Origin: Prorocentrum cordatum
Lineage: Eukaryota
Direction of reading: 5' to 3'
DNA: 64,000 nucleotides
Assembly (NCBI GenBank): GCA_963575745.1
Contig: CAUYUJ010000200.1
Location: 1-64,000, forward strand
The notes below the pieces were generated by a model. It was not told where the DNA came from, made no database searches, and saw only the letters and a list, made by a program, of their open reading frames with translations. Below, piece after piece: positions 1,771 through 33,968 of this stretch; the first letter of the stretch is position 1, and each line of letters starts with the position of its first letter. A program made the position numbers and the translations under genes.

Positions 1771-3019
1771 GCGCGCCCCCCCGCGCGTCCCCGCAGGAGG
1801 CGGGCGCGGCCGCGCAGGAGGCGGGCCAATGCGCCGCCTGCGCTGCCTCCCGTGCTCGGGGCGGACATCCTTGGTCATGCGCCGCGGACGTCCGCCGTCG
1901 TCGTCGTCGCCAGCCGCCGTCGTCGTCGTCGCCAGCCGCCGTCGCCGCTGCCGCCGTCTCCTGAGAGGCGGGAGAGAGCTGAGACAACCAGGTGTCGGAA
2001 ACAATGAAGCAACACTCACGCATACCATATGGTGTGAACTCCCCCCCTCCCTCCGAGTGCAATGTTGGGCTCGGATCTCCCGAGTTTGAGTGTCGGACCA
2101 GTGATGCATATACGTACCAACTTTGAGTTGCGGGGGGAGGGGGGGGTGTTGCTTAACTTTTTCCCTAAACCGGCGGTCGTGGGCCTTCAGGGGGCCGCTC
2201 GTCGCCGCGGCTGGATGCAGCTCGGGAGCTGGCGGTGTCTTAACTTGCCTTGCTCCGAGTCCCTGTCGTCGTCGTCGTCGTCGTCATCGTCGTCGTCGCA
2301 TCTGTCGCCGCCGTAGTCGTCGACGACGTCGCCGCCGCCGTCGTCGCCGCCGTCTTCGTCGTCGCCGCTGCCGCCACCGTCGTCGCCGCCGACGCCGTCT
2401 TTCGAGGTCGTGGGTTCGAGGGTCGAGGCTTTCGGGCGTCTCTCTCCCTTCTCTTCTGGGCTTCTGGAGGCGTCTGGAGGTGTTCCATGGCCTCTGCACG
2501 ACGTCGGTCGTCATCGGCGTCGTCGTCGTCGACGTCGTCGTCCTCGTCCTTCTCCCTCCCTTCTCCCTCCCTTCTCCTCTCTCCATCCTTTGTTTTTCTT
2601 CCTTCCTCCTTTCCTCCCTCGCCTGAACATCTCTTCGGAAGCTCAAGTGGCAGTAATCGGTCTGCAACATAGATCGGTCCCTTTTCCCCTGAGCTCCCCG
2701 TTCTCCTTCACATGTCCTCTCCTTCCCTTCTCGTTCCTCCCCTTTCCTGCCAGGATTTGTACACCGTGGCCAGTCGCAAACGGTTGCAGTAGTGGTGTCG
2801 GCCCCAGTGGCCGAGACACCGCGGAGCCGTTTGCGAAGTCAGTGCGCAGCAACATGGGGCGGGATGGTCGGCGACGCCCACAGGCGGGGCGGCGCGAGGA
2901 ACCTCTTGCAGGGCGGGGCCTTCGGGAGGCGGGGGCCTTCTCAGATGGCCCCGGATGCTTTCAAGGAGGGACCTCTCTTAGAAGCCAAGCGGGCTTCCAA
3001 GAAGGCCCTCCATACTTTC

Positions 3020-3457
3020 CGTGGGCCGTTTTGGGGAGATCGGAGCCTCTTGGGCCGTCTTGGATGCTGCGAAAAGGACGATTGCGAATACGCAAAAGCT
3101 ACTGAATGGCCTTCGGCCCATCCCGCCACGTGCCTGGGTTGTTGGCCATAGGTCTCAAGGATGTTCGTCGGGATGTCGCGGGAGGCCTCTCAACGGTTTC
3201 TTGGGGGCCATTTTGAAGCCTTTTAGGTGGCGTTTTGGGCTTCTCGGAGCGTTGTCGGGGCCTCTTGGGGGTCTCTTGGGGGTCTCCTGGGTGCCTCTTG
3301 GGGCCTTCTTGAAGCCTCCTGGGGGCCTCTTGGGACGGAAGACTCGGACTTTCGGTTTGTTTTCCTCCTCTTGGGCCTTTCTTGGGGCTGTGATTGGGCC
3401 CTTTTGGGCCGTCTTTGGCGCCTCTAGGACCGTCTTGGTGCCCTCTTGGGCCGTGTT
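3020..3457. repeat. Degenerate GGGCC(T/G)TCTTGG-type repeat, interrupted by element B and resuming at 26892-27160
   Basis: Recurrent gggcctcttggg / ggccgtcttgg units on both sides of element B; a similar repeat in opposite orientation lies at ~28250-28800. Confidence 0.7.
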
Positions 3458-3500
3458 TGCAGATTTCCCTAGTTATAAGCCTGAGCATTTCATGTGAGGT
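3458..3500 (+). repeat. Element B 5' LTR, left part (internally deleted)
   Basis: TGCAGATTTCC matches 26501; CCTGAGCATTTCATGTGAGGT matches 26690-26710. Confidence 0.8.
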
Positions 3501-3737
3501 GACTTTAAGGGTAGCTCTTTGGGAGATGTTATAGATAATCGGGAGTATAGCCTGCGCGTCGCTGCCTTATGGCTCAAGGCACGCGCGCCCTATTTGCCCG
3601 GATACTGACTTGGTATTCGCTATGTGCTGGAAAGTTCATTACATCGATCTTATCCTATTTTACTCATCCACACCCCATATCGTATTCCTTCGACATGGAA
3701 TTGGATGCAATACGACCTACCGGAGTCATTTCAGACT
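3501..3737 (+). repeat. Element A 5' LTR
   Basis: Near-identical to 18787-19020 and followed immediately by TGGTAGCGGAGC. Confidence 0.92.
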
Positions 3738-3749
3738 TGGTAGCGGAGC
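3738..3749 (+). other. Primer-binding site, probably initiator tRNA-Met
   Basis: TGGTAGCGGAGC directly after the LTR. TGGTAGC is complementary to the GCUACCA 3' end of many eukaryotic tRNAi-Met. Confidence 0.75.
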
Positions 3750-3849
3750 TGGCCGCACTCTCGTGTGGTCAGCTCTTGCTCTTCTTATCCTCACGCTACA
3801 CGGCACGATCCTCGTGACCACTCTCTACCCTGCGCCACTACTCCACCGA

Positions 3850-5460
3850 CATTTACGAGGATCAGTTCAGAGCAAGAAGCAACACGAGAGGTACGACGTC
3901 TAGACAACAACGTTGGTACCATATACGCTTCATCACTACGCTACCGCCAACCGCTCGGCAACGATCCAAAAGCGCAGTACTTGAAGCGTTGGCGAGGAGA
4001 CCCGCAACATAAAGCGCCTCGTAGACTTGACAAGGCGCTACAAGCCCTACCCCAGCGCGGCAACGCGCCCGAGAACCACCCATACCTCCACAGCCTAGGG
4101 TTGGTTATCTCCGCCATTATATGGTTTGCGCTGGGGGCGACAATCGGACACATGCGCCGAGGAGATATTAGCACCGATGGGCAAACACATGGCCCATACT
4201 GGGACCCCCAAGGCAACGTACTTTTTTTTGCGAGTACGTCTACGAGGTCAACGCGTGGCTTAACGTCACGAGTGGACGCATGACGCCACAAGCCCAAGCA
4301 GCCGCCATACAACGCGGCCTGGGCGACCTAGCGAGGACACTCGCCATGAGGGTACCACCTGACATCATAAACTATGGTGCGGACATCGATGGTGCCCACA
4401 CCGACCCAGCAACCGATATTATGTTCCTCCTAAGCATGAAGTTCGAACGCCTGGAAGATGAGTGTCAGCTCACCTCAGGCACTCAGCTCATCGACTTTCA
4501 TGTGCCCCACGGAGAACGAACCGACGTAACTGTTACTCGTCTTGAGGCACAGTCGGTGGGTTTTTACCTTCCCAGCTTCCAACTGCTTACGACCATCCTA
4601 TTCCGCGCCCTAGGCGTTGGCAAGCAGCGAGCTATGCAACTCCTACAACCACTCAACCACCAAATGCCCCGAACACAACAACAATATGAAGAACTGTGTG
4701 AGAGGATGCGCTCGATAGGCCTCTTGTCAGCACGGTCTCCTGGCAACGTGGGATCAGTGTCTGGAAGGGGAAGGGGAACTGGCAGTGGAAATTTCTACAC
4801 TACCTTAACCACTGAAGCTCAGCCTGGCAACGGGCCCTCAAACATATGGGCCGACGATCCTGGAAAATCTACTGCCCAACTAGCAGGGGATCGATCACAA
4901 CCAAGCTGGGCAACCAGCCCCCCTCCTAGAGAACCTCAGCCTCACCGCTCGCTCTCTATGGGGAGAAGCGAACCCCTTAAACGACGGTGCAGCCACCTAC
5001 GTAGGTAACGACGATTTCGACTCAGGCACCGACACCGACACGATATCATCATATGGCATCGAACCACTGGACTGGTCAGATATCATGCAAATGGAAGGTG
5101 ATAATCAGCGTGCCGAGCATCTATCTTGGTTACTGCAACAAGCAAAGCGTAGGTGGAGGAGGTTTACGCGAAAACCAGTGCGTCGTGTTAGGAGGAGGAT
5201 GCGGAGGAGCTTCAAAGGAAAAGGCAAAGGCAAACGGGGTCGCCGAAGGTTGAACGGACGAGGCATCACGGCTTTCCTCCAGAGGCTTTCGGATGACAGT
5301 ATGATGAGATATTCTTCGGGGGAAAAGGCCGTGGAAAAGGCCGTGGGGAAACCTCTGGAAAAGGCAGAGGCAGGCGGCGAAACCCGCGAGGTAGAGACGG
5401 CCAGATCTTGAAGTGCCATGAGTGTGACAGCACCGATCATCTTGTAAAGGATTGCCCAGT
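3850..5460 (+). pseudogene. gag: Element A gag-like region (frameshifted) ending in a CCHC zinc knuckle
   Basis: ORF pieces 3765-4283, 4280-5008 and 5085-5411 with a basic KGKGKG tract; CHECDSTDHLVKDC (C-x2-C-x4-H-x4-C) at ~5414-5455. Confidence 0.75.
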
Positions 5461-8130
5461 GAAGGGGAATGGAAAGGGTAGATCGTCCGAAGTCGACTTA
5501 GGCTCAAGTGAACCTGCTGTTGAGTATCTGAGCCTCCAAGACTTCGAGGCTGCGGAACAGATATTTCTCATTTGGGTCAGTAACGTGGACGCTCTGGACG
5601 AGATCGAGGCGTGCGGCCATGGGCACTACGCGTACTACTTTGAGTACCTCCGCACGTTCGTCTTCGGAGCCATCGAGCTCACGCCTGTGGAGAACGGGGC
5701 GCTGGGAAACCAGCCCCTTTCCTTCTTCGACTGGATGTTCGGGAATCCAGGTAACATCATGGCCTACGAGAGCAGCGACGAGGACGTCGCTGTTGAGGCC
5801 TCACCTCCGGAGGTCGAGTACAACCTTCGACGGCAATCCGACCTCATGCCTGGAAACAGGCCTACTCCAGTGTATCCGCCGAACTACTGCGAACTAATGG
5901 AAATGGAGGCTCAAGCCTTCACCGTGTGCGTGCCAGGCAATCCTCACGAGCCTCCTGGTATGCCCGCGCCGGGCGAGTACGCACCATGCACGGTGCTGCA
6001 GACTCTCGTGCAGATGCGCGCCGCTCAAGCTGAAGAGTATCCTGATAGTCAACAGAGCGTTGAGAGCGGCCACATGGTGCTGCAAGATTCCGATGTCTGT
6101 GATGACTCGGAATTGCTGCTGGCGGCCCTCACTCTCATCGACAGCGTGCTCCCCGACGACGTGCAGCGACGCGTGTGGTATGCAAAGGGGCGTTGGCGCC
6201 AAGCCCTTGAGAGGGCTATCGCAATGCGGGGACAGGCGCTTCCTCCGCCGGGATGGGGTCTCCAGGCGGTGGGGCTACAGCCCAACCATGCGGCCATGCG
6301 AAACGTCATCGGGCAGCCCTCCTATGACTATGATCAGCTTGAGGCGCGCGCCGTGCTCGGCAGCGAGCCTGAGCCGACCGCCGTGCCGCCGGCGCCGGGA
6401 CAGCCTGGCGGGCTCAGACGCCTCTGCAGCAGGGAAACCTGCCCATCCCGGCTGGGCCAATGACCATTGTCAGTGGCAACCGTATTTTAGAAGTTGAAGA
6501 TGATGACGGATGTGGATTGTGCGAGGACGAGGCCACCATCCTCATGATGGACGTCAATGGCGAAGGCGAGGAGGTGGACTTCGACCCAGACAGTCCTGAC
6601 GCACAACCATCCGCACAAGAGCCAATCATGCCAGACTCCTGCCTGCCCAGGATGCGCTGCCTACGCCTACCCAGGAACCCCGTCAGCTCCTGCTCAGGCT
6701 ATGTCAGCAGCATCATCCCATGAACAGGCCAGGAGGTCTCGCTCACATCCGCGTCTTAGGGACGATCCGCACCGTCAAGGACGGCTCCCACGTGAATGGG
6801 GGCAGGCAGCCCCATCAGAGCATGCCGCTCGACGGGGGGGCCAGCTGCTCGCCTACAACGACCCTGGGCGTCAAACGGGTGAGCACTCTGCCTTTGGACG
6901 GGGCAACCCGATCTACAGGGGCGCCCAGGGCAGGTCCATGCGAGGTGGCTGTCAGCTCGCGACGAACATTCGACGTCCTGATAAAGAGGCAGCGCGGAAA
7001 CAGCTGAGAGCCATCATCGAGGAGCGCCGCTCAATGCGGTCTGCGGTCCATGCTCACAGGACTTCCAGGAACACAGACCTGGTTGTCCTGTAGGCCTCAA
7101 TGGCGTCTTGAGCCCGAACAGGGGCCGCACTCCTGCAAAGGAGGGTCATCCACCTCTTGTGCCTATGACCCAAGAAGAGATCGATGCGGTCAATCGCCGC
7201 CTCGGAACCACGGCCCACAGAAGCTCTACTGCCCAAGAGATTCGATCTCCGCGGGGACGTGCGCCTATGACCCAAGAAGAGAAGGATGCGCTCAATCGCC
7301 GTCTCGGAATGCGGGGAAACCCGCCTGGTGTCTCCAATCAGGCTCAACCGTACGAGATGACGAGTGACGACGAGCATGAGGTTCAACGAGCCGCAGCAGA
7401 AACAGAGCGCAAGCGAGTGGCAGAAGAGCGAACCCGCGAGGCAACTCGCCGAATGCTGCTGGAGTCACAAGCTGAAGCAAAGAAGCCCCCAACGTTCCCG
7501 AAGGCCAAAAGCGAGGCCCATGAACCTAGGGCGCCTTCGGGTGAAAGACAGAAAGTTTCTACCCGCATAGAGGAGCTCGGGTTCGATGTGCAGATGGGGA
7601 GGCCCCTCTCCGAAGTGCCACAGTCACCGACTCGAGCAATGCCTGCAAAGAGACCTGACCCCAGGCAACAACCTCAGGACTCCCTGGAGATCCGCCGGCG
7701 ACTGCCCAGCCGTAGTGGCTCTATCGCCGGCAAGGCCAAGGCATTCGAGCGTGCAGGGTATACCCCTACGCCGGCCTCGCCAGTGGCGACGCGCTCCAAG
7801 GCGTCCGAGGAGGGTGTTTTGCCTCGGGGTACTTGGGTGCCTAAGATTAGGAGCAGCACCAGCCGAGAGACACCGCGGGGGAACCCGCCAGGCGCTGCAG
7901 CCGCAGCATCCTCATCATCAGGAGCTGCAGCCTCGTCAGCGGCAGAGGCCCCATTGCGGGGAAACCCGCCAGAGGACAAGCTGCGCCACCCAGGCGACAC
8001 CTCCTTTACGAGCGGGAGGCAGGCGTTGATCAACGATCGTCGTGCTCTACGGAAGCTTCCACCGATGCGTTCGGTTGACGAGGCGCTTGTGGAGAGCTGC
8101 AGGCAGAAGAACATCATTCCGAGAAATAAC

Positions 8131-8900
8131 CACAAGCTCAAGCAGCTCAGTAAGTGCCTCAGCAAGATCTGTAGGCACGCGCTTGACAAACCGCACAATC
8201 CAGCGTGGAAGCTGAGGACGTTCGACGACCACGATGGATGGATCAACCTCCACGAGCTCGTAAACGAGTTCCCCTGGAACGACGGTATGAGGCATGACGG
8301 GTGCAACCCGAGGCATGACGATGCCAAGATCATCGCCGAGACCTTTTTCGACAGAACGGTCGACCAGATGGCTGCCATTATGATGGCGATCGTCCGCGTC
8401 TGCGAGGCGGACGGTGAGGAGAAGCAGCGTCTGCAGTTCAAGGTCCTGATGCGAGATTCTGGCACGGCCGATCTGTTCATCCGTGCTTCGCATGGGCGCT
8501 CGTGGACGCTCGAGGCCCCTTGGTCGCTGTACAAGTACATTGTACTGCGGGAGACCGGCCCCGTACCCCGACGTTGCCATTCACGGCACACGGTGGGCAG
8601 CCTTCGAGGGCACCATGTGGATAGGCCTTTCCTGCCGCAGAGAGCACAACACCAAGAAGAAAGGGACTGGCCGTTCACACATCCACTTTGTTCCAACGCT
8701 TCAGCGTCGTGACGTGCAGAGTGGATTGGACCCTGATTCCGAGATCATCATCTCGGTGGACTGGCGCCAGGCTTTGAAGGACGGAATTGAGTTCTGCTGG
8801 TCCGACAACGGGGTGCTGTTATCGGAAGGGGTCGACGGCATTATTGAGCCGTATTACATCAACTACGTGGAGGAGATCTCCACAGGCAAACAGTGGCGGA
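8131..8900 (+). pseudogene. TPT1: Tpt1/KptA-family RNA 2'-phosphotransferase domain within element A (one frameshift at ~8560)
   Basis: Motifs in the correct order: LSKCLSKICRH, DDHDGWINLHEL, EKQRLQF, IRASHGRS (ORF 7108-8712). After a +1 shift (ORF 8483-9847): AIHGT, GRSHIHF, SG, EIIISVD, ALKDGIEFCWSDNGVLLSEGVDGIIEPYY. Confidence 0.92.
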
Positions 8901-10427
8901 ACCCACGCTACTTGGGTAGTCGCCGTGCACGCTGTTCCACTGCCACGATGAACGAACCAAGCAGATGGAAAACGGTGGGCAATGCGAGTATTGGGTGCAG
9001 AATGTCTCTCTGGCGTGATGATGAGCCTCCTACGGCTTGGTGTCAGAGAGAGTTGGGGGACCACTACAACCCAATAGTGCTGGGAAGCCAGCCCGAGACC
9101 CACCAGATCCTGATAATTAACGAGAGTGAGGCGGGGAGTGCGGCTCCAAGCCGTGCTCCAAGCCAAAGGCCTAGTGCCATATCTTGGCAGGTCCTCAGCA
9201 CCTCAGATCTGGATCAGATTGCTGCTGCTCTAAACCCTGAGCACGTGGAACAGCTAGCGGACAGATTGTACCAACAAGATCCCTGGGCCGCTGGCCAAGG
9301 AGCTATGTCTGCCATGGTGACACGCAACCGCCAGGCCGTGCAGGGGAACCTGCCCGTTAACGGACTCAGGATTGACATGCCCGAGCCGCAGGGAGACCCG
9401 CAAACGTTCGGCCGCATCTTCGGAGAGCCCGCTCGATTTGAGCAGATGCCAGGGAGCCCCTCGCACAGCATGCGCACACCGAGGGGCATGACCCCAGTGG
9501 CGACACCGCCAGCACAGTCTCCATTCGGGACTCCTGGTCGGTCTGCCACGAATGGCACTCTCATGGAGCGAATTGCTGCGGCCAGAGCTGAGCATGGTAC
9601 AGCTCTTTTGGGCATGATGCCACCAGGCGCGCCATCGAGTTTGCGGGGGAACCTGCCTGGTACTCCAGTGCACCACCGACCTCTAGCCGACCAGAACATT
9701 GCTACTGGAGTGCCTGATGACTACCGCACGCGGGTGGCGGCTGCGGCACAACAGGCGCAAAGCCACAACCTGCCCCACCCGAGCGGTCAGAGGTGGAGAC
9801 CAGCCTGGTCTTGGGAGCCGGAGGGTCCGAATCCACTCGGCCTTTAATGCTCATCCGAGCATGGCTCAAGGCCAGAGGCCAGCACCTGCTCCAATGGATC
9901 CGCCACTGTACCCAGACGGGTCTAGAGTCCCGAACAGATTTGTTCGCGAGACAGCGGATCAGTTTCATAGCCTCACGAATGTGCGCTGCAGCGACCAGTC
10001 CATGCACCCGCACATGGCATTCATGCCTGCACCGACGATGCCAGAGGTGGCCGTCCAGCCTACTGCCCATTCGATATCATCAGGCAGTAGGGGAGTGCCA
10101 GATTACATCAGGCAGACGTACCACACTCAACAGGCGTGTTTCAGACGCCGGCAGGCGGTGCAGAGTGTACGTGACCAAGCACGCGCAGCAGCACTTGAGG
10201 TCATGAGGAGCAGGGGCCCCCCCATGCGAGGAAACTCGCCAGCCGTGTCGCCCGCAGCCTCCACAGCAGCAGCTACTCCAGCAGTGGCCGCCGCAGCGCC
10301 GGAGGTGCAGACACCCGCAGGAGATCCTCCAGCTGCCTTCCTGGGCTCTGAAACAGTTCTGGAGCGGCAGCGGCGAGTGTGCCCTAGGGCGGCAGACGTG
10401 GAAATCTATACTGGGATGGAAGACACC

Positions 10428-10583
10428 TGTGCGGTATGTCTCGAGGAGTTTATGCCGAGGGAGAGTATCTACCGTTTGAGGTGCAACCATCTGTTCCACG
10501 AGGATCGCTGGAACTCGAATGTGGTGGGCCATGTTGCGAATCAGCGAGAAGGAGATCCTCAGCAACCAGTATGTGCTATCTGC
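10428..10583 (+). pseudogene. RING-H2 zinc finger (E3 ubiquitin-ligase type) within element A
   Basis: CAVC-x14-CNHLFHED(R)W...CAICR in ORF 9699-10661; the sixth ligand is Arg (CGC) where Cys (TGC) is expected. Confidence 0.85.
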
Positions 10584-11439
10584 CGAGCGCCAGGCATCAT
10601 AGCGTCGTCGTTCCCATGGACCGGCTCCGTCACTCAGGCTCCTGAACAGGCAGCGAGGTAGCTGCGAGAATTGAGGAGCATGGTGGAGGAAATGACGGCC
10701 AGCATGCTAGACAGGCAGGCAGCACTGCCCCAGCAGCGGGGAAACCCGCCGGAGGAGGTGAGGGCGCCGATGGAGACGGGATACCGTGAACAGCTTATCC
10801 CGATGACAGCGCCTCAGCAGGGAAACCTGCCCAATACTCCACCTGTGCCGATCCTTCCAACTCAAGGTGGCTCCTGCGATGTCGCCCCAGAGTGGGGGTG
10901 GGGCCGAGCTGCCACTGGGCCCTGAACAGCTGCGTGAGCTGCGTGTTCGCCGCTTCCAGACCCAGATGGACAATGCACGCACCACGTTCATGTTGGACGC
11001 CGATAATCCTGAGAGCGAGTCGTTTGACCTCTCAGATTCTTCAGCGGCGACAGCGGCAACGGCAGTCAGGGCCGTTGAACTCTCAGCCACGAATACTGAG
11101 TTCGACGAGCGGTTGCAGTACAGGGATCACTTTACAAATGAGGGATTACAAGACAGCGCCCTTCAGTCATATCTGACGCTGACGCGACGCACCACTCGTG
11201 AACAGTACACCAGCATACGCGATGAGTATGTTAACTGGCGGGAGGAACAGGGCGCCCACGCCCAGGACGTGTCGCACTTCCAGTACATCGACCTGGCACG
11301 CATGGCCGCAGGAAGGCCAAGTGCCAGCACGATGCGGGGAAACCCGCCAGGAGGCACGACCGAGATGCGGGGAAACCCGCCAGACAGCGCAGCCGGCATG
11401 TCAGAGACGGTGCACATAAAGCAGCCGAGCAGGACGTTT

Positions 11440-11900
11440 CTGGAGGACGGTGGAAATTCGATCCTCATAGACGTGGGCTCGGAGATCAATATAATGGGAG
11501 AAAGCACGAGCCGCAAATTCGTCCAGGCTGCTGAAGCACACAATCGTCCTTGCATGTTTGAACCCCGTTCTCGATTGAACATCAACGGGGTAGGCGAGGG
11601 GTCGGCCCCAGCTGATACCGTGGGGACCTTCAGCATTGCCTGCGAGTGCCAGGGCTCGACCCAGCTCGACTCGTACAAGACTAATATTGTGTCAGGCTGC
11701 GGCAAGGACCTGCCTGCTATCCTGGGTCTCGACAGCATGCAGGACAAGAGCACCATTATTGTGCTCGAGCGAGGCCAGGAGAAGCTGAGATTCCCTGGGA
11801 AGGGACAGGTCAAGACGGAACTCCCCGAGGGCTCCAAGATCATGCCGACAACGAAGCTGCCATCAGGACATCTGTCAATCAGGTGTGATCGATTTGGAGC
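11440..11900 (+). pseudogene. pol: Element A aspartic protease
   Basis: ILIDVGSEINIM active-site motif, INGVG flap and PAILGLD in ORF 10867-12114. Confidence 0.8.
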
Positions 11901-12547
11901 CGCGGGGCAACCCGCCTCAAGTACAAGTACAACATCGTTCCAGACGGTGCTGACAGGCGAGCCATCCCCTGCGCAAGAGCGCCAACAACTGCAGGGAAAT
12001 CTGCCTCAGGGGCTGCTCGCGATACTCGCCAAGGCGACGATGAAAGGTGACAGCATCGACGATCTGGAAACGTTCGATTGCTTCGTAGCCAGGACACTGG
12101 CCCAGCATGGCTGACTTGTGCCCATGGATGCTGTGAGGACACGCCGGAAGATAGTGATGGGGTACACGAATCACGAGCTGCAGACGGTCAACGACGCAAG
12201 GTCGAAGGGCCTCCTGAAGCAGCCGATGGATAGTCCATCCATGCTGGCCACGTTTGCGGAGCAATCCGCCTCTGAGGCTACCGCGCGCTGCAGTGCAGAG
12301 CTCCAGCACTTGAGAGAAGCTCAGATGCTGGCAGATGTGGCAGGCGCATCTTCTTTATCTTGAAGATGGCAGGGCGACGCTGCCCCCTCGTCGCCTTGCC
12401 TGATGGCCGCGAGGCCAGGGGGTAACAAGGACAGCGGGGCAACCTGCCATAAGAAAAAGAACTTTCGTTATCGAAGATACGAGAGAAGCTTGCGCTGACC
12501 TCCGCACCCGAGGATATACCTGTGATCGTATTTCCCACAACGAGCTC

Positions 12548-13000
12548 ATGACAACTGTGGGCACAGAATATCTGGGTGCAGTGATTAGTGGGGACTCTGC
12601 TCTAATATGGGTCAGTGCCCCGGGTGACTGGTACGTACGGACACCAGGTAAAAGAGTAGCCCCACACTGGTCGCGCATTCAGAAGCTTCTGACGAAGGCC
12701 AAGAAGTTCCGCATGACAATTATAGCGTTTGGCCCCCAGGATACGTCTGGAAGTTGTCTCCAATACGTGATACTCTGGAGGATCTTAAGTTGACGGTAGT
12801 GCGGATGCGGTTGTGCCATTTCGGTATCAGGTTTACTATGCAAGACAATGCACCAAGTGGTACATATATGCAGGCAGCCACAGCAATACCGATGCAAACT
12901 GGCGATACCACAACATGTCTTGGATTGTTACGGCCAAACGGTACGACATGCCGAATGGAGAGCACAGACACGCATCACACTCATTCGTCACCTCAATGAT
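12548..13000 (+). pseudogene. Possible first, highly degenerate methyltransferase-like domain of element A
   Basis: ALIWVSAP...IIAFGP...VRMRLCHFG loosely parallels the layout of the domain at 13726-14370. Confidence 0.35.
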
Positions 13001-13725
13001 AAGATCCTGGGGAAAGGCAACACTACGCACGGAAACGTGCCAGTATACTTGAATACCTACACACGTACGGATCACAACGTACATCATTATGTGACGACCA
13101 ATAAGGGGGACCGAAATGGTCCGATGTTATCCGACGTAACGATTAACCTGGATACCAATGCGTTTATTCAGGATATCGCAGTAGCCGATCAACCAACGGG
13201 ATATGATTGGCATGCACCACTACCTGCAGGGGTTGCCAACATAAGTACACGGATGTACTGGCAGCCCGAGGAACCGGTCATGCTCGGCAACGAGCCTGCT
13301 CAATCACCACAGAAACCTAGACGCGTCATCATAGATGACTGTCCTTCCCCCCTCCCGACTCTGGCGATTGCTGCAGGTACCCACTCATCAACGACGATGG
13401 GCACACAGACCGGTGAACAGGACGAGCAAGTCTTACCTATGGAGTCGCGTATCAGACAGAAGGAAAGGCTCAAAGCCGAAAAGGAAGCAGGCATCAAGCC
13501 CCGCCGCATCAAAAAGCACGTTGAAGATGGAAACGATGATTGCGGCGATGACTTGTCAGGACTCGGACGGGATCTTATGGCGACCTGGAGCACTGACGTC
13601 CCTGTCGAGCTGATTAACTCTGACGAGGAAGATGATATGTTCCTTACCCTCCCCAGATGTATGCCCGACGCACACGCCGACGTATACAGCATAGTGGCTA
13701 CTCTATGCTATGGCAACAACAATTG

Positions 13726-14370
13726 CGTGGATATGGTGGAGCTGTGTGGAGGCGAGGGTCGCATTTCAGAGCTTGCCTTCTCAAGGGGTCTCTCCTCGGG
13801 AGGCAATCTAGACAAGACCCGCATGTGTCGACCTGGGAGATCCCTCGGTGCAGCGAGCTGTAGACCACTAATTTGCAGTATGCTATGTACGAGTAGCCAT
13901 TCTACAGCCCAACTGCCGCACCACAGGACCACCATCCTACTACAACTACAAAACCAAATATGACACTTGGGAACAGCACCACAAAGAAGATTTGCCACAC
14001 ATAACCTACTGTGGTAAAACAGCCGGCACACAAGAGAATGCACGGAGGTGGTTTATACGCGAACAACCCACAGGAACATGGGTGGACGATCTTCCCCCAT
14101 GGAAAGAACTTGCCAACCGACCACACATCACTACCGTGCGCATCGACCAATGTGCGACGGGACTTAAGGATACGTCTGGTGACTATATCAAGAAGCCGAC
14201 AAATATCACCAGCAACGACGAGGCAATTCTTAAACCTTTTGAGCGACTCAAGTGCAACGGTCAGCATGTGCATGCACAGCCGTGCAACAAGGAGCTTTCA
14301 CTGGCACAAAATACACTCGACGACTGCAGTCTGCCTTTGTGGAAGCCGTCTATCTGGCGAAAGCCATCGA
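13726..14370 (+). pseudogene. C5-cytosine DNA methyltransferase-like domain of element A (frameshifted)
   Basis: VELCGGEG (motif I-like), VDL, ILQPNC (motif IV-like PxC, alternative frame ~13900), FIREQP (motif VI-like), IDQCATGL, KKPT, CNGQHVH. Confidence 0.65.
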
Positions 14371-15019
14371 TGATACGCGCGGAAACGCGCCTGCACGAAC
14401 TGCTCATGCCTATCCTGCCGACCTCCCTGATCAAGCTGAACCAGGAGAAGGTATGAGACGCATCGGCGACCGCATCATCCCAAAAGTGGCTACATGCCCA
14501 GCATGTATCGACAATGTCCGAAAGGACAGTTCATGACTCCATCTCAGTATACTGGCCATGCCCTGCATGCCAGAGGGATCTTACGAGAAGCAAGGGTGTT
14601 AAGAACCACCTCGACACGGAGCCCGGCAAATGCCATTTTGTTGAGCCATTCAAACTCCCAGATGATCATGTTCCCGAGGGCCGCACTGTGCCAGCTTGGT
14701 GGAACTCTTACCCATGCCTGGTGAGGGCCAAGCTTCGGCATCGGGTGGCCGTCAGGGTGCTCATGCCAGGCCACCGCGACCACGCGCCTTTGGGAACGCT
14801 GATCCTACATCTGGCGCTAGCAGTTGTGACATACTGCGAGACGCGCCCGAGCGTGGAAACACGCCCTCCGCGTCTTCGGGCGAACTATCACAGGTAGCGG
14901 CCCGCCGCGGTCGCTTACAAGGCATACCTCCACCACCAGATGCAGCTGATGAAGGAGACCGACTGCGGAGAGCTACGAGGAACCCTTTTGCCTCAACCGG
15001 CTCGGGGGCTCCACGACTG

Positions 15020-16100
15020 CCCGACTGGGCGAGATTTGACATCCAACACAGTCTGCAAAACCTCCGTAGTCATGAGCCTCACGTAGTCAAACAGGGACTC
15101 CGCAAACTGCACTTACGGTGGTATCATGCGAAGGAACCCAAGATGGGGCTGATCCTAGATAAAGTGGGACTGGATAGCGTGCGACTAAATATGATCAAAG
15201 AAATCTGCGACACATGTCGGGGATGTAGAGCATGGGAGCGCCCAGGTAACTCTACGCTACCTTCCGTAAGCCTTCCGGGAAATTGGCTTGACGAAGGCGA
15301 AGTAGATCTCATGTTTTACAAGAAACGGGCCATATTCCACATTATGGACCGATGTATTCGCCTGGCAGCAGGCCAAGAAATCCCCGATAGAGAACGTGAC
15401 GCCATACTCGACGCTTACCACTACTGCTGGATCGCCGATCATGGGCCCTTCAAAGTCTTGTTTTCAGATGGAGAAGGCGCCCTCAACAATGAAACTGCCA
15501 AGGCCATGATGGCGAATAAAGGTGCGACACTTCGTATCCGAGCGCCTGGCCAGCGCGCGACCTCGATCGAGTCACGCAATGGCATTCTTAGGGGCACTCT
15601 CCACATGATTGAGGAAGAGCTGAACAGACACAACATCCCCATTGTATTTACGAGAGTACTGGCCGAAGGTATCTTCGTCGCTAACGCCTTCACGCTTTAC
15701 AGCGGAGTATCGCCGTACCAAGCACACACTGGGCGACAGCCCTCTTTCCATCCTGACCTCGACACCCTTGTCTTTCCCAAGGGACCCGAGACGTCAGGCC
15801 ACGAACGCAAACGCTGTGTGAGGGAAGTCAGCCTGGGAGCAATAACTCAAGCCACGGCGGTTGCGAAGACGAATCGCGCCCTCAGGGCTAAAACGGCCCC
15901 AGATGGTGCTCGCCTATACTCAGCTGGGGACTTGGTCGATTATCGCCGACCTACGGCCACTAAGGACGACCATGGAGGCTGGAATGGCCCGTTCCCTGTG
16001 ATTCGTAACGTGTCTGAACGAGGACACGTCGTCGTCAAGGCAGGACCGCGTGAGGTAATTGTAATGTATTCTGGTGCTCGCCACGCGCTATACGTTGAAT
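15020..16100 (+). pseudogene. pol: Element A integrase
   Basis: LHLRWYH...CRGC (HHCC), EVDLMF, FSDGEG and IESRNG (DDE), SPYQAHTGRQP and WNGP in ORF 14696-16315. Confidence 0.9.
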
Positions 16101-17059
16101 GCCTTCTCACCAGGGAACTTGGCATGGACAACATGGCCATGCAAACCGTCCTTACATATGTGGCACACCTTGGTGCAGGGAAACCTGCCAAAGTCTCTGG
16201 CTATATTCCAGACTACAAGGGGAACCTCAATCTTTCCGACGACAGCAAATTTACCCGCGCGTGCATTTTGCACTGCAGTATTTCGTGCGAAACTACTTCC
16301 GAGTTGAGCGTGTAGTAGCCGTGAGATTGGCCAAGAGCGTGCTCAATCTACCTGCAGTGAAGTACGCCACCGGGTCTACACTGATCCACTACGACAACGA
16401 TGTGAACCCAGCCTTCCACTATTATCAGTGTGTAGGCACCGGCCTGAACATCCTTCAAATTACTGGTAGCACTCACTCCAGACTCATTTAGTGCCTGACG
16501 TCGCAAGTTCCTTCCCTAGAATTCCATGACGACCTTGCCAAGTATCAACACTTGGACACGCCGTCTGGAGGACCCGACCAGCCTGGAGACAGGCCCCCTC
16601 CAGACACCCCAGGTGTTACATCACCAAGTGAAGGTCGCCTGTCTACAATCTACGAAGAAAGCGAGGAACACGACATCGAGGCTGTGATGATGGAGGAGTG
16701 GTGCGATGAGCTACGTATGGACCTTCATCCCACAACGGTTATCGACGACTATCTCTGCTGCGTCCCAACAACCGTGCTGCCCGACAAATGTGTCTTGGTC
16801 TCAGCATCTGTGGACGAGGAAGATACCGTTGTGTCGGAGATGCTCGGAGACGAGCCCGAACTACAAGAGCCCTTGTTTGTCTTTTTATGCTCGACTACAC
16901 CTGACGAGGGTTATTTTCTTGACAGTGATGAACACGGTCCCTATGTCGGGCTATGTTTCACGCCAGAAATGTCAAATATCGTGTTGGATCAGACGCAACT
17001 CGCACAGCTCGAACCAAACATGGTCGCAACGATGAGAGTATACGTATCATCGGCTGCTA

Positions 17060-18130
17060 AACGTGCTGTGGTAGTCAAGGAAGACGACCTACTCACCAAA
17101 GCCGACATAGCAGCACATCCTAAAGAGGTTAGTGAAGCCTTGCACACCGAACTCAAGATCTGGCTTGACAACCGATGCTTTGAGATGTATGACCTATCAA
17201 AAGCTTCCAACACCATGACATCCAGATATGTATACAAGTGGAAGTTTGTGAAAGTAGGCACCGATAGTGTTAAAACTATCCGTCTTAGACTTGTCCTCCG
17301 CGGATTCATGGACACGGAGGCTTTCGATGTAGAAACCTTCTCGGGAACTGCCCGCAGACAGTCCCAGAGGCTTCTGGCAAGTGAGGCGGCATGTCATCCA
17401 TAATGGGTCTTAGCATCTATGGACATCGACAAAGCGTTCCTCAACGGACTGACGTATGAGGAACTTGCTCATGCCACCGGCGAGGAGACTCGCATGGTTT
17501 GCTTCACCCTTCCACCAGGAAGTGCCCAGGTGCTTCGCACCCTACCAGGCTTCTCTTCTTATGATGAAAGCCGACACTGCCTCAGATGCCTCAGGCCAGG
17601 AACGGGTGCAAAGGGCGCCCCAAGCGCGTTCTCCCTCAAGCTTCGTACGACAACACGAGCTATAGGCCCTACACCGACAAGCTACGATCCTGAGCTTGAA
17701 TTCAGTCAGGATCTGTTAGCGGCAAAACATGTTGACGACATCAATATGACAGGCCTAGAGAAAAACGTAGGCGACTATGTACAACGTGTCGAAAAGGGGT
17801 GTGTGGTAAATGTAAGCTCAACAAACATTCTTACACGAATTGCGCCGTTCGCTACACGAAGAATGAACGAGGGGGTGTGATCATGGACCAGGACGAGTTG
17901 TTTTAACAATTGCGTCCTATCACACATCCTGAGCTTACGGGAGCAGCGGCAGACGCCAAATCTACCAAATTCATCACCGACATGTTCGTTAGCCTGCGAG
18001 GAGCTCTCGCCTATGCCCTTCTTACTCAAGTCTGGCTCATGGTGTATGTGGTATCTCTCCAGAAGATCCAAGAGCCCACCAACTTATAAGTCAGACGACT
18101 GAATGCTGTGACGCGAAAGCTGACCAGCAG
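17060..18130 (+). pseudogene. pol: Element A copia-type reverse transcriptase (stops and frameshifts)
   Basis: SRYVYKWK, RLRLVLRGF, DIDKAFL, PGTGAKGAP, KHVDDI. Confidence 0.9.
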
Positions 18131-18164
18131 CCCGAAACGCATCACCTTCTCTCGGATGAAACCG

Positions 18165-18670
18165 ACGAATGAAGTATACATACATAGTGATTCGGGGTAT
18201 CGGAAATTCACCGGGGAGGAGGACGATGAAACCAAGGGCTACGGTATTCGTGGGGCTAACGTAATTCGGCGAGGAAACTCGCCCCAAGGCGAATCCGTCG
18301 TTCACCCCTGCGACGGACTATGCAAGTCACACCGACTGCAGGTGAGGTCCAGCTATGCCGCTGAGGCACTTGCAGCTGCACACAATCTTGATGAATGCTA
18401 CCCCACGCTCATCACTCTCCACGAGCTCAAGGCCGGAGCACTTACCCCACGACAACTACGAGATATGCGTGAGGTTGGAGGCCTAGCTATCAAAGTATCC
18501 CTTACTATAGACGCTGAGTCTGTATACAAATCGTTATCCAGCAAAGACCTTAAGATACCGACGGAACGTACTTTGCTGGGACATATCAGCTGGATACGTG
18601 AGCTCATGGATATAGGTATGGTGCATAACGTACAGTGGTGTGACACTAGAGACATGACCGCAGACATCTC
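18165..18670 (+). pseudogene. pol: Element A RNase H (C-terminus appears truncated)
   Basis: HSDSGY, RSSYAAEALA, IDAESVY, WCDTRDMTAD. Confidence 0.88.
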
Positions 18671-18786
18671 GCCCTTCAGTCTGGTGGTTGACCAGGCTGC
18701 GTATACTGTTTTCCTTGCAAGCAGAGTTGCGCACCTGCCGAGAGCCTAGCGACCGCGAGGCTTTACTCTGCGTCTCCTCCCCTCCC

Positions 18787-19020
18787 GACTTGGGTAGCTC
18801 TTTGGAGGATGTTATAGATAATCGGGAGTATAGCCTGCGCGTCGCTGCCTTATGGCTCAAGGCACGCGCGCCCTATTTGCCCGGATACTGACTTGGTATT
18901 CGCTATGTGCTGGAAAGATCATTACATCGATCTTATCCTATCTTACTCATCCACACCCCATATCGTATTCCTTCGACATGGAATTGGATGCAATATGACC
19001 TACCAGAGTCATTTTAGACT
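18787..19020 (+). repeat. Element A 3' LTR (may start as early as 18678)
   Basis: Matches 3501-3737. Confidence 0.92.
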
Positions 19021-19201
19021 AGGTGAGCGTGCGTTCGCTGTGTATGCCCATTGCTGTTTCTCTCTCGAGCGAGCGCCCCTTCGCTTGTGCTCACGGGCGC
19101 ACGTTTTTGACTTGAGGCTCCTGGAGAGGAGCGCGATCTGACGCAGATCGCGGGGTGGAGACATACAGCATACCACTGCGCTAGACCCGCCTAGACTTGC
19201 A
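19021..19201 (+). repeat. Element B 5' LTR, right part
   Basis: Homologous to 26707-26891, ends TTGCA and is followed by PBS TGGTAGCAC. Confidence 0.88.
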
Positions 19202-19239
19202 TGGTAGCACGAGCGCGTGGTGGACGCGGAACCCTACGA

Positions 19240-20890
19240 TGAACTCGAGTGACGATCTTCGGGAGAAGGTGCCAGGCTGGGACGGAGACCCTACGACCTG
19301 GCGGACGTGCAGGCGGAAGGCTTCCCAATGCCAGGAGGGCACCAAGCGAGAGGACAGATACCTATGCGGCCCGAGGCACGAGGCGCGTCTCAGGAGCAGG
19401 GGCGAGGTCACCGTCGAGCGCTGCGAGCCAGGCTGGCCCTCCAGGGCAGACGGGGTCGAGAGGCTCTTGGCATGGCTCGAGCGGAGATGCTCGCGCCAAG
19501 CAGTCCCTGATGTCGGCCAGGAGCTCGAGACGTAACGTCTGACGGCTGGGAGTACACTGACGGCCGAGGAGACGAGGATACCGAGGACTCTCACCATTGG
19601 AGTGCTGCAGCCCCAGGTGCAGATGCCGAGGAGGAGCTCGACGAAGTGCTAGAGGTCTTTCCAGGGCTCGCCCTCGGCTGGTTGATGCTCGCGCCCTCTG
19701 ACCTCGACTCCCGCGAGAGATCAGCGATCCTGACCGCGACCAGAGGGTCGCTCGATGTCAATATCATGCGTGAGAGGGCTGATATCGAGCTGGGGGGACG
19801 ATGACATAGCAAAGCGTGATGGACAGGCCACGTAACCGAAGGCATATGCAGCCCAGCTCGGTGAGGCTGACCGCGCATGGCTAGACGGCGAGGAGGGCGA
19901 CGTGGACGCGGGCAGTTTCGTGGCAGGTCAGGAACCTCCAGGGGCGCGCGATGAGGAGCTGGACCAGGCTGAGGCCGACGAGGACGACGTCGAGACGTAT
20001 TTGGCGGCCCAGCACGTGGAGGTAGAGGTCCTGGCCGCGATCCACAACGCCCGGCGGACCCTCCGCCGGACCCGCGAGGCGCAGGGAGACAGTCGCCTGA
20101 GCCAGGGCTTCTACCGTGGAGGACGACCAGCCAAAGCCAACCCTTTCAAGGGAGGTGGCCGAGGTGCCGGCGGAGGATTCCCAGCGGGGTCGCGCCAGCG
20201 GATGGGCAAAACCAGTTCGGAGGCAGGGGTGCGCCGCCGACCAAAGGCCAGGAGAGGTGCACGAAGTGCGGTGAAGCTCATTGGCCTCAGGACTGCCCCG
20301 ACCGCCATGGCCCGCGCGTCACAGGTGGCGCGACAAGCTCGCCAGGCGCAAGCGCGAAGGTGGCCGCCCGCGGGAAGGAGCTGCAGTTCAACCTCGCGGC
20401 CGCGATGGTCGGCGAGCAGGAGTCCGGGGGCTCGCCATGCGAGGCGATGTTTGCAGAGCATGCCATCCGCGAGGGCAGGGGGATCGTCGACCTGGGATGC
20501 GCGGGCGCCATGGGAGGCGAGCGCGCGCTCGACATCTTTGCCCGCGAGAACATGGAGAGTGCGGGGGGGCGAGGCTCCAGGAGGTGAACCTCAACTGCCG
20601 CCCAGCGTACAGCTTCGGGAATAGCGAGATGGGGCGCGCCGATGGCCGGGTGAAGTCCGGGATCGCGGGCGCGGGCGTGCAGGGGGGGCATCGCCGTCGA
20701 CGGCTTCGCGAAGGATGCCCCGATCCTCGTGTCCAAGAAGGTGCCGAAGAAGCTGGGGGCCGTCGTGGATTGCGACGCAGGTGTCGCAGTGTTCGTGGAG
20801 CTGGCCTCGGACGCCCCGGCCCAGATCAAGGAGTCGCCAGACGGTGGCCGCTGCTGCATGAACCTAGTGGGCGACCTCCTCGAGCAGAAG
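19240..20890 (+). pseudogene. gag: Element B gag and protease remnants
   Basis: EKVPGWDGDP; CTKCGEAHWPQDC knuckle at ~20256-20295; GIVDLGC protease motif at ~20480. Confidence 0.7.
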
Positions 20891-26500: not shown

Positions 26501-26891
26501 TGCAGATTTCCTTAGTGTTAGGTCGGGCATGTCCCCCTACAGGCGGATTCCGGGCCAAACATTGAACAGGCAAAAAACGTATTCCAACTGGTCTAAACAT
26601 GCTCAAACAATCGTCCCCATGCTGTTTGTTGGCTATTTCTGAATCTTCCCCCTGTAGATGGACAGGCCCGACATCACCCTAGTGACAAACCTGATCATTT
26701 CATGTGAGGTGAACGTGCGTTTTCTCTGTGTGTGCGCCCGTTGCCGTTGCATTCTCGAGCGAGCGCCCCCTCGCCTGTGTTCAGCGGCACACGTTTCTGA
26801 TGTGAGGCTCCTGGAGAGGAGCCCGAGCTGACGCAGATCGCGGGGTGGAGAGATCAAACATACCACTGCGCTATACCCACCTAGAGTTGCA
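26501..26891 (+). repeat. Element B 3' LTR (391 bp)
   Basis: TGCA...TGCA; homologous to 3458-3500 plus 19021-19201. Confidence 0.88.
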
Positions 26892-32864: not shown

Positions 32865-32908
<44 letters not shown>

Positions 32909-33308
32909 GTGATGGTGATGGTGATGGTGATGGTGATGGTGATGGTGATGGTGATGATGATGACGATGCTGATATTGATGATGATGATGCTGATGCTGAT
33001 GATGATGCTGATGATGATGATGACGAAGACGATGATGATGATGATGCTGATGATGATGATGAGGAGGATTGGGATGACGATCATGATGATGATAATGATG
33101 ATGATGATGCTGATTATGATTATGACCTTGATGATGATGATGTTGTTGCTGCTGCTGATGCTGCTGCTGATGATGGTGGTGGTGATGATGCTGATGCTTC
33201 TGATGCTGATGGTGATGATGGTGATGGTGATGATGGTGATGCTTATGATGCTGATGCTGATGATGATGCTGCTGATGATTATTATTATGGTGATGCTGAT
33301 GATGGTGC

Positions 33309-33346
<38 letters not shown>

Positions 33347-33925: not shown

Positions 33926-33968
<43 letters not shown>

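Follow-up and report, generated by a model that had tools for sequence, protein, structure and literature searches.

Dispersed sense-strand GNRA hairpins in a copia-like LTR retrotransposon of Prorocentrum cordatum point to an undescribed RNA signal

The cis-acting RNA signals of long terminal repeat (LTR) retrotransposons are, to our knowledge, known almost only from the leaders of a few model elements. In retroviruses and retrotransposons the packaging signal Psi, exemplified by the GACG tetraloop hairpins of gammaretroviruses and by SL3 of HIV-1, is read by Gag or its nucleocapsid (NC), and the packaging signal of alphaviruses is an array inside nsP1, in which 4-8 stem-loops that share the loop motif GGG are spread over some hundreds of nucleotides and copy number matters. 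The boxB hairpin of phages lambda and P22 (15 nt, with a 5-bp stem and a loop of GNRA fold) is bound by the arginine-rich N peptide, and small mobile palindromes are represented by the Rickettsia palindromic elements, bacterial REP sequences and mitochondrial GC clusters. Among single-stranded RNA viruses, MS2 and STNV provide examples of dispersed packaging signals. As outlined in one source (PMC6281560), the dispersed packaging signals of picornaviruses (parechovirus) and of the hepatitis B virus pregenome consist of many stem-loops that share a loop motif and lie in coding sequence. Here we analyze 64,000 nt of contig CAUYUJ010000200.1 from the Prorocentrum cordatum assembly GCA_963575745.1 (positions 1 to 64,000 of the forward strand; hereafter the window), in which an LTR retrotransposon on the + strand, element A (3509-19020), carries a minimal GNRA-tetraloop hairpin about 38 times, and we compare it with related loci on metagenome contigs (L001 to L012).

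Counted systematically, the hairpins of element A comprise 32 canonical and 6 decayed copies, all on the + strand and between the LTRs, from 3992 to 18269 (Table 1). The unit is 15 nt long and reads GC-NN-G / G[A,C,G]RA / C-N'N'-GC followed by an unpaired 3' C. The base 3' of the stem is C in 34 of the 38 copies and the base 5' of it is G in just 4, which suggests that a sixth pair is avoided and that growth of the stem is prevented. At least 10 stem types occur, mostly GCGGG, GCAGG and GCGAG, and the second position of the tetraloop is A in 25 copies, C in 10, G in 3 and T in none. Decayed copies either have a single mismatch (3992, 5374 and 9388) or have the last A of the loop changed to G (6355, 9079 and 15360). 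At position 3995 every aligned family contig reads G, which would complete the pairing of the hairpin at 3992 (figures on variation among family contigs come from the 40 places listed of about 2,790 variable ones). A first-pass annotation, made from the letters of the window alone, had listed 19 hairpin positions, and all 19 hold the 14-mers that it gave. Its estimate of about 18 dispersed copies was nevertheless too low, because it had missed the copies at 4905, 5701, 5848, 7436, 12256, 13027, 13282, 16581, 16842 and 17480, the G.U copy at 4822, the two at 4331 and 12088, and the six decayed ones. It had described the stem-loop correctly but as a 14-nt unit, without the 3' C, and its statement that the loop always stays GNRA nearly holds, with exceptions in two canonical copies with GACA (4331 and 12088) and in three decayed copies with GNRG. 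Its confinement of the hairpin to element A is true within the window: with a covariance model trained on 32 copies, all of these score 19-28 bits, and nothing outside the element exceeds 15.1 bits on either strand of the 64 kb.

The abundance of the hairpins in element A is far from that expected by chance. In a mechanical scan, perfect hairpins with a 5-bp stem and a 4-nt GNRA loop number 32 on the window's + strand, of which 30 fall within 4055-18269, and 1 on its - strand. The interior of the element (3746-18791) accounts for 30 of those on the + strand and for none on the - strand, and the other 48 kb hold 2 and 1, respectively. Dinucleotide shuffles of the interior (n = 300) yield 0.53 +/- 0.68 hairpins, with a maximum of 2. 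Between 4200 and 18790, where 29 are observed, shuffling the order of the codons leaves 0.57 +/- 0.82, and shuffling synonymous codons with the protein kept leaves 1.81 +/- 1.35 (maximum 7). The frequency is thus not matched by codon-shuffled controls. The numbers of GNRA tetranucleotides on the + strand of element A that are enclosed by 0 to 6 stacked pairs are 399, 97, 28, 10, 2, 29 and 1, with a spike at exactly 5, and the stem is exactly 5 bp long in 29 of the 30 perfect hairpins. Because the rows of a hairpin alignment are chosen for their pairing, a pair count on them would be circular and was not used as independent evidence. Covariation was instead assessed by matching only the fixed letters GCNNGGNRACNNGC, with no pairing required at the free NN positions. 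There are 30 such matches on the + strand of element A, in 25 of which both free pairs are Watson-Crick (about 2 expected); each of the remaining 5 has one Watson-Crick free pair, and 3 of these 5 are G.U. The - strand of the element has no match, and the rest of the window has 2, both unpaired. All four pair types occur at both free stem positions, and the compensatory stem changes that had been noticed by eye are therefore real. The 30-nt flanks of different copies are 26-27% identical, against 25% for random positions, which indicates that the repeat is the 15-mer itself rather than a part of a bigger duplicated block. The predicted stability of the stems (dG) ranges from -4.5 to -9.3 kcal/mol, with a mean of -7.8, and the mean pair probability is above 0.5 for 23 of the 32 hairpins when they are folded in a 200-nt context. 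Four more perfect 5-bp GNRA hairpins on the + strand of the element, at 7130, 11792, 12404 and 14515, lack the GC clamp and may be variant members; the one at 12404 falls within the 70 nt that separate the hairpin at 12434 from a conserved in-frame stop at 12361.

To see whether the positions are kept in other elements, we turned to relatives of the integrase open reading frame (ORF) of element A, which has only three close protein relatives in a collection clustered at 90%. An integrase profile found 12 loci in metagenome contigs (L001-L012), where a single integrase sequence used as the query gave no match; viral contigs gave no match either. L002 (9.0 kb, integrase identity 47-51%) is collinear with positions 9600-18665 of the window in one reading frame and bears nine hairpins, all on the + strand and with an essentially uniform stem that starts GCACGG. 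Five of them are canonical (257, 915, 1497, 6302 with one U.G pair, and 8302), and four have a one-base bulge in the 3' arm (2245, 3932, 4364 and 6329). L001 (5.7 kb, integrase identity 50%) has four, at 1644, 3696, 3729 and 5706, with the stem TCGTG/CACGA. A covariance model trained solely on the window recovers five of the L002 hairpins at E <= 0.015, all on the + strand. Both contigs are incomplete at their 5' ends, and an apparent surplus of about 5 kb in element A over L002 was rejected, since the L002 contig simply ends there.

When the hairpins of these relatives are placed on element A by protein-guided alignment (Table 1), all four of L001 and eight of the nine of L002 fall at or near an element A hairpin; those at L002 6329 and 8302 have no counterpart of their own. 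Four of the nine L002 sites are within 9 nt of one, for which the chance is about 4% per random site, given 21 element A hairpins in the homologous 9.2 kb; this answers the question of positional conservation that the first-pass annotation had raised. At a site after the protease, the hairpins L002 2245 (CTETL, phase 1) and L001 1644 (RGNA, phase 2) align exactly with each other, and that of element A (12434; AGQPA, phase 0) is about 24 nt away. In the linker between integrase (IN) and reverse transcriptase (RT) the stem reads GCTCG/CGAGC in element A, GCATG/CGTGC in L002 and TCGTG/CATGA in L001, so that the lineages differ by two-sided changes or wobbles. The linkers around the shared hairpins have otherwise diverged beyond recognition.

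It is also evident that the hairpins are not explained by the peptides they encode. In phase 2 the unit reads [CNN]-G-N/D-[N'N'G]-P, giving RGNPP, QGNLP, RGNSP, PGNRP, LGNQP, HGNVP, LGNEP and RGNTP. About 19 coding copies in this phase encode x-G-N/D-x-P, the L002 sites lie at domain borders, and HGNV[PA] recurs at 6 of the 9 L002 sites, three of them with the fuller xHGNVA and similar flanking residues. These could be taken to mean that the motif is a peptide signal, either a set of protease cleavage sites or an x-G-N-x-P linear motif at domain borders, with the palindrome incidental. However, this explanation is largely refuted by the phase and leader data, and we regard it as extremely unlikely. 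All three phases occur in frames validated by homology, and in L002 they occur within one and the same frame, where five hairpins are in phase 2, two in phase 0 and two in phase 1; the other phases encode ARERA, ARRRA, CTETL and xTETC in L002, and AGKPA (integrase), AGQPA (after the protease), GEETR (RT) and RAETR (before the integrase) in element A. As had been suggested at first, the motif is read in different frames inside pol domains as well, with copies at 15360 and 16175 in the integrase, 17480 in RT and 18269 in RNase H. Two copies (3992 and 4055) precede the gag ATG and are in the non-coding leader. The first and fourth residues of the phase-2 peptide, in pairs such as R-P, Q-L, L-E and H-V, are linked solely via base complementarity, and the synonymous-codon shuffle destroys the hairpins while the protein is kept. 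That selection acts on the structure of the sense-strand nucleic acid, rather than on the peptide, is thus well supported, in agreement with the first-pass annotation, by the strand bias, the exact stem length, the covariation, the leader copies, the three phases and the positional conservation with compensatory stem changes. Taken together, it is very likely that the hairpins are a selected cis-acting RNA motif.

Such an array might also arise without function, if a tiny palindrome spread through the element by insertion, by templated hairpin-forming mutation or by short-patch conversion during reverse transcription. The 15-nt unit equals five codons, so that its insertion would keep the frame, and small length differences from L002 are seen at 18269 (3 extra residues) and 14851 (4). 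Local tandem duplication does add hairpin copies, the pairs being 33 nt apart in both element A and L001 and 27 nt apart in L002; moreover, three identical 16-mers in L002 have the same bulge, two of them with extended similarity, and stems are uniform within each lineage. However, none of the approximately 38 copies is reversed, and at least five well-aligned copies (11902, 15360, 16175, 16581 and 17480) show no length change relative to homologs that lack the hairpin. Gaps elsewhere are of 3, 4, 11 or 13 residues, with no consistent 5, the flanks are unrelated and show no target duplication, and the hairpin positions have persisted while the proteins diverged by about 50%, a distance at which neutral 14-mers would already be lost to decay. 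Among the imperfect stems of element A, L001 and L002, G.U-type mismatches outnumber A/C mismatches by 7 to 2, an asymmetry expected if the + strand RNA folds. The unchanged lengths, the single orientation and the G.U excess argue against a mobile palindrome at the DNA level and for selection on the sense transcript. The self-spreading DNA palindrome, one of the ideas offered in the first-pass annotation, is therefore disfavoured, and we consider it very unlikely. The identical 16-mers with the bulged hairpin in L002 are at 2243-2262, 3930-3949 and 4362-4381, two of them sharing similarity 5' of the hairpin, and hint at local copying or at a coding compromise (Ala instead of Pro).

As for the function of the motif, we tentatively favor, by analogy with viruses and at somewhat less than even chances, the view that the hairpins are multivalent signals on the genomic RNA, read by a protein and serving packaging or assembly. 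A full-length sense transcript would carry about 38 hairpins from the leader to the end of pol, and these would serve as cis-acting signals read by a protein, the likeliest reader being the element's own Gag/nucleocapsid or another domain of its polyprotein. Many weak identical sites along the RNA could together provide high avidity, by which the RNA would be chosen and condensed for packaging into virus-like particles; if the reader also sees the letters of the stem and co-evolves with them, packaging would stay family-specific. The exact 5-bp ruler, the invariant closing G-C pair, the 3' C and the restricted loop suggest protein recognition rather than mere stability, and the CCHC knuckle in Gag, although a weak match, speaks for Gag/NC as the reader. 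The L002 contig has 9 hairpins against 21 over the homologous span of element A, and the element A lineage gained copies in RT, RNase H and integrase that altered residues of these domains. Copy number that scales with the RNA, together with the residue changes tolerated, fits a signal whose strength depends on multiplicity, a kind best known from the dispersed packaging signals of RNA viruses. Each lineage has essentially one stem (GCACG in L002, TCGTG in L001 and mostly the three types named above in element A), which is unexpected from selection on structure only and suggests either a co-evolving reader of the stem or concerted evolution among copies.

Several observations weigh against this packaging reading. 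The predicted pair probability in the 200-nt context is below 0.5 for 9 of the 32 hairpins, and a reader encoded by the element is a candidate only and a matter of conjecture. The retroelement packaging signals we know of lie in the leader and not throughout the ORF, and concerted evolution could likewise account for the uniform stems even if no protein reads their sequence. The element A copy is broken by frameshifts and stops, so that its hairpins reflect inherited and not current selection. In the linkers the alignment is not certain, and of the eight L002 matches three are off by 24-66 nt. Moreover, related elements with the same domain set do without the motif, the 5-7 kb loci L004 and L005 having none, and it is absent from all of the more distant L003-L012 (integrase identity 32-44%). 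In 150 representative integrase relatives (108,478 residues), an indirect scan of protein sequences finds the phase-2 signature once among 31 xG[ND]xP, where about 5% are expected by composition. That single case, P0036 (49% identity), is at the pre-integrase linker, where P0015 has two phase-2 signatures. These results suggest that the hairpin system belongs to one subclade and that the family at large can do without it.

A conserved, strand-specific motif at the RNA level, on the same evidence, would also fit binding sites for a host factor that serves nuclear export or RNA stability, or that shields a long unspliced RNA against decay, cryptic splicing or silencing. The density of the motif along the whole 15-kb RNA agrees with a need that scales with RNA length, as does the difference in hairpin number between element A and L002, and the lineage-specific stems would then reflect different hosts. 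Yet the motif has no match to an Rfam family and is found nowhere else in the 64-kb window, which indicates that host transcripts there do not use it; we hold a host factor to be rather unlikely.

Alternatively, the hairpins may make RNA-RNA contacts, with palindromic stems pairing between two genomic RNAs (dimerisation) or GNRA loops docking into helices and compacting the RNA. GNRA loops are classic modules of tertiary contact, and the stems are palindromic and near-uniform within a lineage (GCACGG in L002, TCGTGG in L001), so that any hairpin could pair with any other. However, the stems of element A are heterogeneous, and RNA-RNA contacts would explain neither the conserved unpaired 3' C nor why a sixth pair is avoided. 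The classical GAAA tetraloop-receptor contacts envisaged in the first-pass annotation find no matching set of 11-nt receptors: of the two receptor halves as we know them, CCTAAG occurs only 2 times in element A and TATGG 14 times, numbers not comparable to that of the loops. We consider RNA-RNA contacts of either kind improbable.

A further possibility is that the hairpins are substrates or marks for a modifying enzyme of the element, either a C5-methyltransferase-like domain acting on RNA or single-stranded DNA, or a Tpt1-like domain; DNMT2, which acts on a tRNA stem-loop, offers a model. The domain between the protease (PR) and IN has no Pfam match, and a sequence search of PDB gave nothing meaningful. 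An AlphaFold model of its L001 homolog (25 aligned sequences; mean pLDDT 65.7, core blocks 80-97) is predicted to fold like MET1 (Foldseek E 1.1e-3, prob 0.99), DNMT1, DNMT2 and M.HaeIII, which are its best matches. Its conserved stretches ELCGGEG, P-[N/T]-C and RE[Q/N]P resemble what we take to be the C5-methyltransferase motifs I, IV and VI. In the hairpin, the cytosine that closes the loop and that of the 3' overhang are invariant, and a Tpt1/KptA domain is present (E 9.9e-14). On the other hand, the fold match is weak (E ~1e-3, at the pLDDT given), L005 has a short methyltransferase-like match (18 residues) yet no hairpins, and the Tpt1-like region has no counterpart in the 5'-incomplete contigs of L001 and L002, yet both carry hairpins. 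A role as substrates is, in our judgment, very unlikely. A methylation site of the N6-methyladenosine type was also rejected, as the base after the loop-closing C is often G, a misfit to the consensus as we know it.

Related to both packaging and marking is a more speculative proposal, in our view also improbable, of a family-specific RNA 'barcode', in which a domain of the polyprotein would read the GNRA fold together with the stem letters of its lineage, and the element would package or chemically mark only its own RNA in the presence of competing retroelements. One candidate marker would be its DNMT2-like C5-methyltransferase domain, and new copies would be recruited by point substitution, even in RT, RNase H and integrase, as the RNA grows. 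If true, a eukaryotic retrotransposon would carry a self/non-self code spread along its coding sequence.

The carrier of the hairpins, element A, is a degenerate copy, about 15.5 kb long, of a very high-copy copia-like LTR retrotransposon, whose family is represented by 2,003 to 9,441 contigs at 80-99% likeness in four public runs. Its two LTRs are 96% identical (3509-3745 vs 18792-19029), and LTR-to-LTR joints are present in family contigs. The TGG-starting 14-mer that resembles a primer-binding site (PBS) is also found after the putative LTR of L002 (~8650), despite about 50% protein divergence; a tRNA scan of the window found no tRNA. The domain order is gag(CCHC) - Tpt1-like - RING - PR / stop / C5-methyltransferase-like - IN - RT - RNase H. 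Gag probably starts at the ATG at 4152, a candidate by homology to the Gag start of L002. The match of the Tpt1/KptA-like domain quoted above is to its C-terminal part (2.9e-3 for the N-terminal part), within the gag-pro region, and the RING-H2 finger is kept in L001 (~480-620) and L002 (~1000-1140) at E ~4.5e-9. The protease region gives no Pfam match at 11404-11900. The integrase is grouped beside rve clusters in a protein atlas, and RVT_2 (PF07727) matches the RT homolog of L002 with 30.2 bits (E 4.2e-7), slightly below the gathering score of 31.6 bits, whereas the broken RT of element A gives no match to it; the integrase preceding RT, together with the RVT_2 match on the intact relative, places the element with copia-like elements. 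Element A shifts frame repeatedly relative to its relatives and has a stop codon in frame inside RT, and several of the frame changes are private to this copy when compared with family contigs. A different in-frame stop occupies the same aligned place in three lineages, as TGA in element A and TAG in both L002 (2154-2156) and L001 (1564-1566), 11-12 codons before a conserved S/P-C motif and with a shared CAGG two codons after it, and may be a readthrough site between gag-pro and pol. We do not claim a link of the hairpins to this stop, as they are 40-90 nt downstream, too far for usual readthrough stimulators. If the fold prediction holds, the element would carry a DNMT-like domain in a copia-like element. 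A 2018 study (PMC5890265) describes DNMT domains in long interspersed nuclear elements of dinoflagellates and in charophyte elements, and abundant Symbiodinium Copia elements without one.

Some other features of the region were noted. A 102-nt tandem duplication (90% identical; 7158-7207 and 7260-7309) ends just before the hairpin at 7311, and some family contigs have one unit fewer; this explains deletion joints at 7311, and their attribution to the hairpin was rejected. The sequence just outside both ends of element A (3467-3502 and 18996-19201) resembles 26677-26891 with 81-89% identity, possibly as a repeated target or as another LTR remnant. Tandem arrays that are long, rich in G and strongly skewed (GC skew 0.35-0.47) occupy 32750-35000 and 48000-51600; their repeat periods are 9, 12 and 15 nt.

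Table 1. Hairpins and other features of element A, with the corresponding hairpins of L001 and L002
Feature	Position	Strand	Remarks
Decayed hairpin GCGAG-GAGA-CCCGC	3992..4006	+	one A/C mismatch; 5' leader
Hairpin GCGCG-GCAA-CGCGC+C	4055..4069	+	5' leader
Hairpin GCGAG-GACA-CTCGC+C	4331..4345	+	
Hairpin GCCTG-GCAA-CGGGC+C	4822..4836	+	one U.G pair
Hairpin GCTGG-GCAA-CCAGC+C	4905..4919	+	
Decayed hairpin GCGGC-GAAA-CCCGC	5374..5388	+	closing C/C
Hairpin GCTGG-GAAA-CCAGC+C	5701..5715	+	
Hairpin GCCTG-GAAA-CAGGC+C	5848..5862	+	
Decayed hairpin GCTCG-GCAG-CGAGC+C	6355..6369	+	loop GNRG
Hairpin GCAGG-GAAA-CCTGC+C	6429..6443	+	
Hairpin GCGGG-GAAA-CCCGC+C	7311..7325	+	
Hairpin GCGAG-GCAA-CTCGC+C	7436..7450	+	
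Hairpin GCGGG-GGAA-CCCGC+C	7875..7889	+	
Hairpin GCGGG-GAAA-CCCGC+C	7956..7970	+	
Decayed hairpin GCTGG-GAAG-CCAGC+C	9079..9093	+	
Hairpin GCAGG-GGAA-CCTGC+C	9340..9354	+	
Decayed hairpin GCAGG-GAGA-CCCGC	9388..9402	+	one A/C mismatch
Hairpin GCGGG-GGAA-CCTGC+C	9643..9657	+	G.U; near L002 257, offset ~36 nt
Hairpin GCGAG-GAAA-CTCGC+C	10226..10240	+	aligned with L002 915, other phase there
Hairpin GCGGG-GAAA-CCCGC+C	10736..10750	+	
Hairpin GCAGG-GAAA-CCTGC+C	10817..10831	+	
Hairpin GCGGG-GAAA-CCCGC+C	11334..11348	+	aligned with L002 1497
Hairpin GCGGG-GAAA-CCCGC+C	11367..11381	+	tandem partner of 11334, 33 nt on
Hairpin GCGGG-GCAA-CCCGC+C	11902..11916	+	phase 0
Hairpin GCAGG-GAAA-TCTGC+C	11991..12005	+	G.U
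Hairpin GCCAG-GACA-CTGGC+C	12088..12102	+	
Hairpin GCGGA-GCAA-TCCGC+C	12256..12270	+	
Hairpin GCGGG-GCAA-CCTGC+C	12434..12448	+	G.U; phase 0; offset ~24 nt from L002 2245 and L001 1644
Hairpin GCACG-GAAA-CGTGC+C	13027..13041	+	
Hairpin GCTCG-GCAA-CGAGC+C	13282..13296	+	
Hairpin GCGCG-GAAA-CGCGC+C	14377..14391	+	phase 1; aligned with L002 3932
Hairpin GCGTG-GAAA-CACGC+C	14851..14865	+	pre-integrase linker; aligned with L001 3696 (tandem partner 3729); offset ~66 nt from L002 4364
Decayed hairpin GCCTG-GCAG-CAGGC+C	15360..15374	+	integrase core
Hairpin GCAGG-GAAA-CCTGC+C	16175..16189	+	phase 0; integrase C-terminus; no indel vs 5 relatives
Hairpin GCCTG-GAGA-CAGGC+C	16581..16595	+	
Hairpin GCTCG-GAGA-CGAGC+C	16842..16856	+	IN-RT linker; aligned with L002 6302 and L001 5706
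Hairpin GCGAG-GAGA-CTCGC	17480..17494	+	phase 1; inside RT; no indel vs L002
Hairpin GCGAG-GAAA-CTCGC+C	18269..18283	+	inside RNase H; 3 residues more than L002 here
5' LTR	3509..3737	+	alignment boundaries; 229-nt direct repeat
PBS-like TGG-starting 14-mer adjoining 5' LTR	3738..3752	+	read from sequence
Non-coding 5' leader	3738..4151	+	with hairpins 3992 and 4055
CCHC zinc knuckle (Gag/NC-like)	5411..5467	+	PF21890, E 1.4e-4, below curated cut-off
Tpt1/KptA-like RNA 2'-phosphotransferase domain	8140..8830	+	PF01885; split over two frames
RING-H2 finger	10422..10586	+	PF17123, E 1.1e-7
Aspartic protease region	11404..11900	+	D-V-G-S, by eye; collinear with L001 and L002
In-frame stop TGA	12361..12363	+	aligned with stops of L001 and L002
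C5 cytosine-methyltransferase-like domain (predicted), between PR and IN	13430..14300	+	AlphaFold model of L001 homolog (2200-3600)
Integrase	14975..16204	+	HHCC + D,D,E by eye; 51% identical to L001 and L002
Copia-type reverse transcriptase	17200..17900	+	HVDD; in-frame stop 17401-17403
RNase H	18090..18700	+	55% identical to L002; motifs by eye
3' LTR	18792..19020	+	229-nt direct repeat

Element A repeats one minimal hairpin about 38 times along a coding RNA of 15 kb. The hairpin has kept its places over deep divergence, is present in three phases and has changed residues in RT, RNase H and integrase, a natural example of RNA structure overriding protein coding. Its carrier family is itself unusual, with RING, C5-methyltransferase-like and Tpt1-like domains in a copia-like polyprotein. 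Rfam gives 0 matches at E <= 1 over 3400-19300 on both strands, and in the openly searchable full-text literature no description of repeated GNRA hairpins in a retrotransposon was found. These results point to an undescribed RNA signal, and the 15-nt motif is small enough for simple binding and packaging assays. Should the hairpins prove to be bound by a protein, element A would be the first retrotransposon known to have dispersed packaging signals like those of viruses.

Compared with the systems described at the outset, mobile palindromes are also short, GC-rich and present in many copies, at times in frame in coding sequence, but they occur in both orientations, exceed 30 nt and appear as indels relative to homologs, whereas the hairpins of element A have one orientation and 15 nt and arose in several cases by substitution. 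The boxB hairpin shares the 15-nt length, the 5-bp stem and the GNRA fold, and is recognised by its shape and a few bases; however, its loop is a pentaloop, each transcript contains it once or twice, and its role is in antitermination. No arginine-rich partner was found for the hairpins of element A. Psi likewise consists of purine-rich tetraloop hairpins on the genomic RNA, and two element A copies are in the leader, after the putative PBS and before the gag ATG, but Psi is a single leader cluster and 36 of the 38 copies here are inside gag-pro-pol, up to 14 kb downstream. The nsP1 array of alphaviruses is also a repeated stem-loop with a conserved loop motif inside coding sequence, though its loop motif is another one and element A has about 38 copies over 15 kb. 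The hairpins of element A would work most like the dispersed packaging signals of viruses, in which many short stem-loops in coding sequence, with a shared loop and variable stems, provide joint avidity for the capsid protein. We do not claim membership in that class; the carrier here is an LTR retrotransposon, and its hairpins, with one exact stem length, a GC clamp and a 3' C, are far more uniform.

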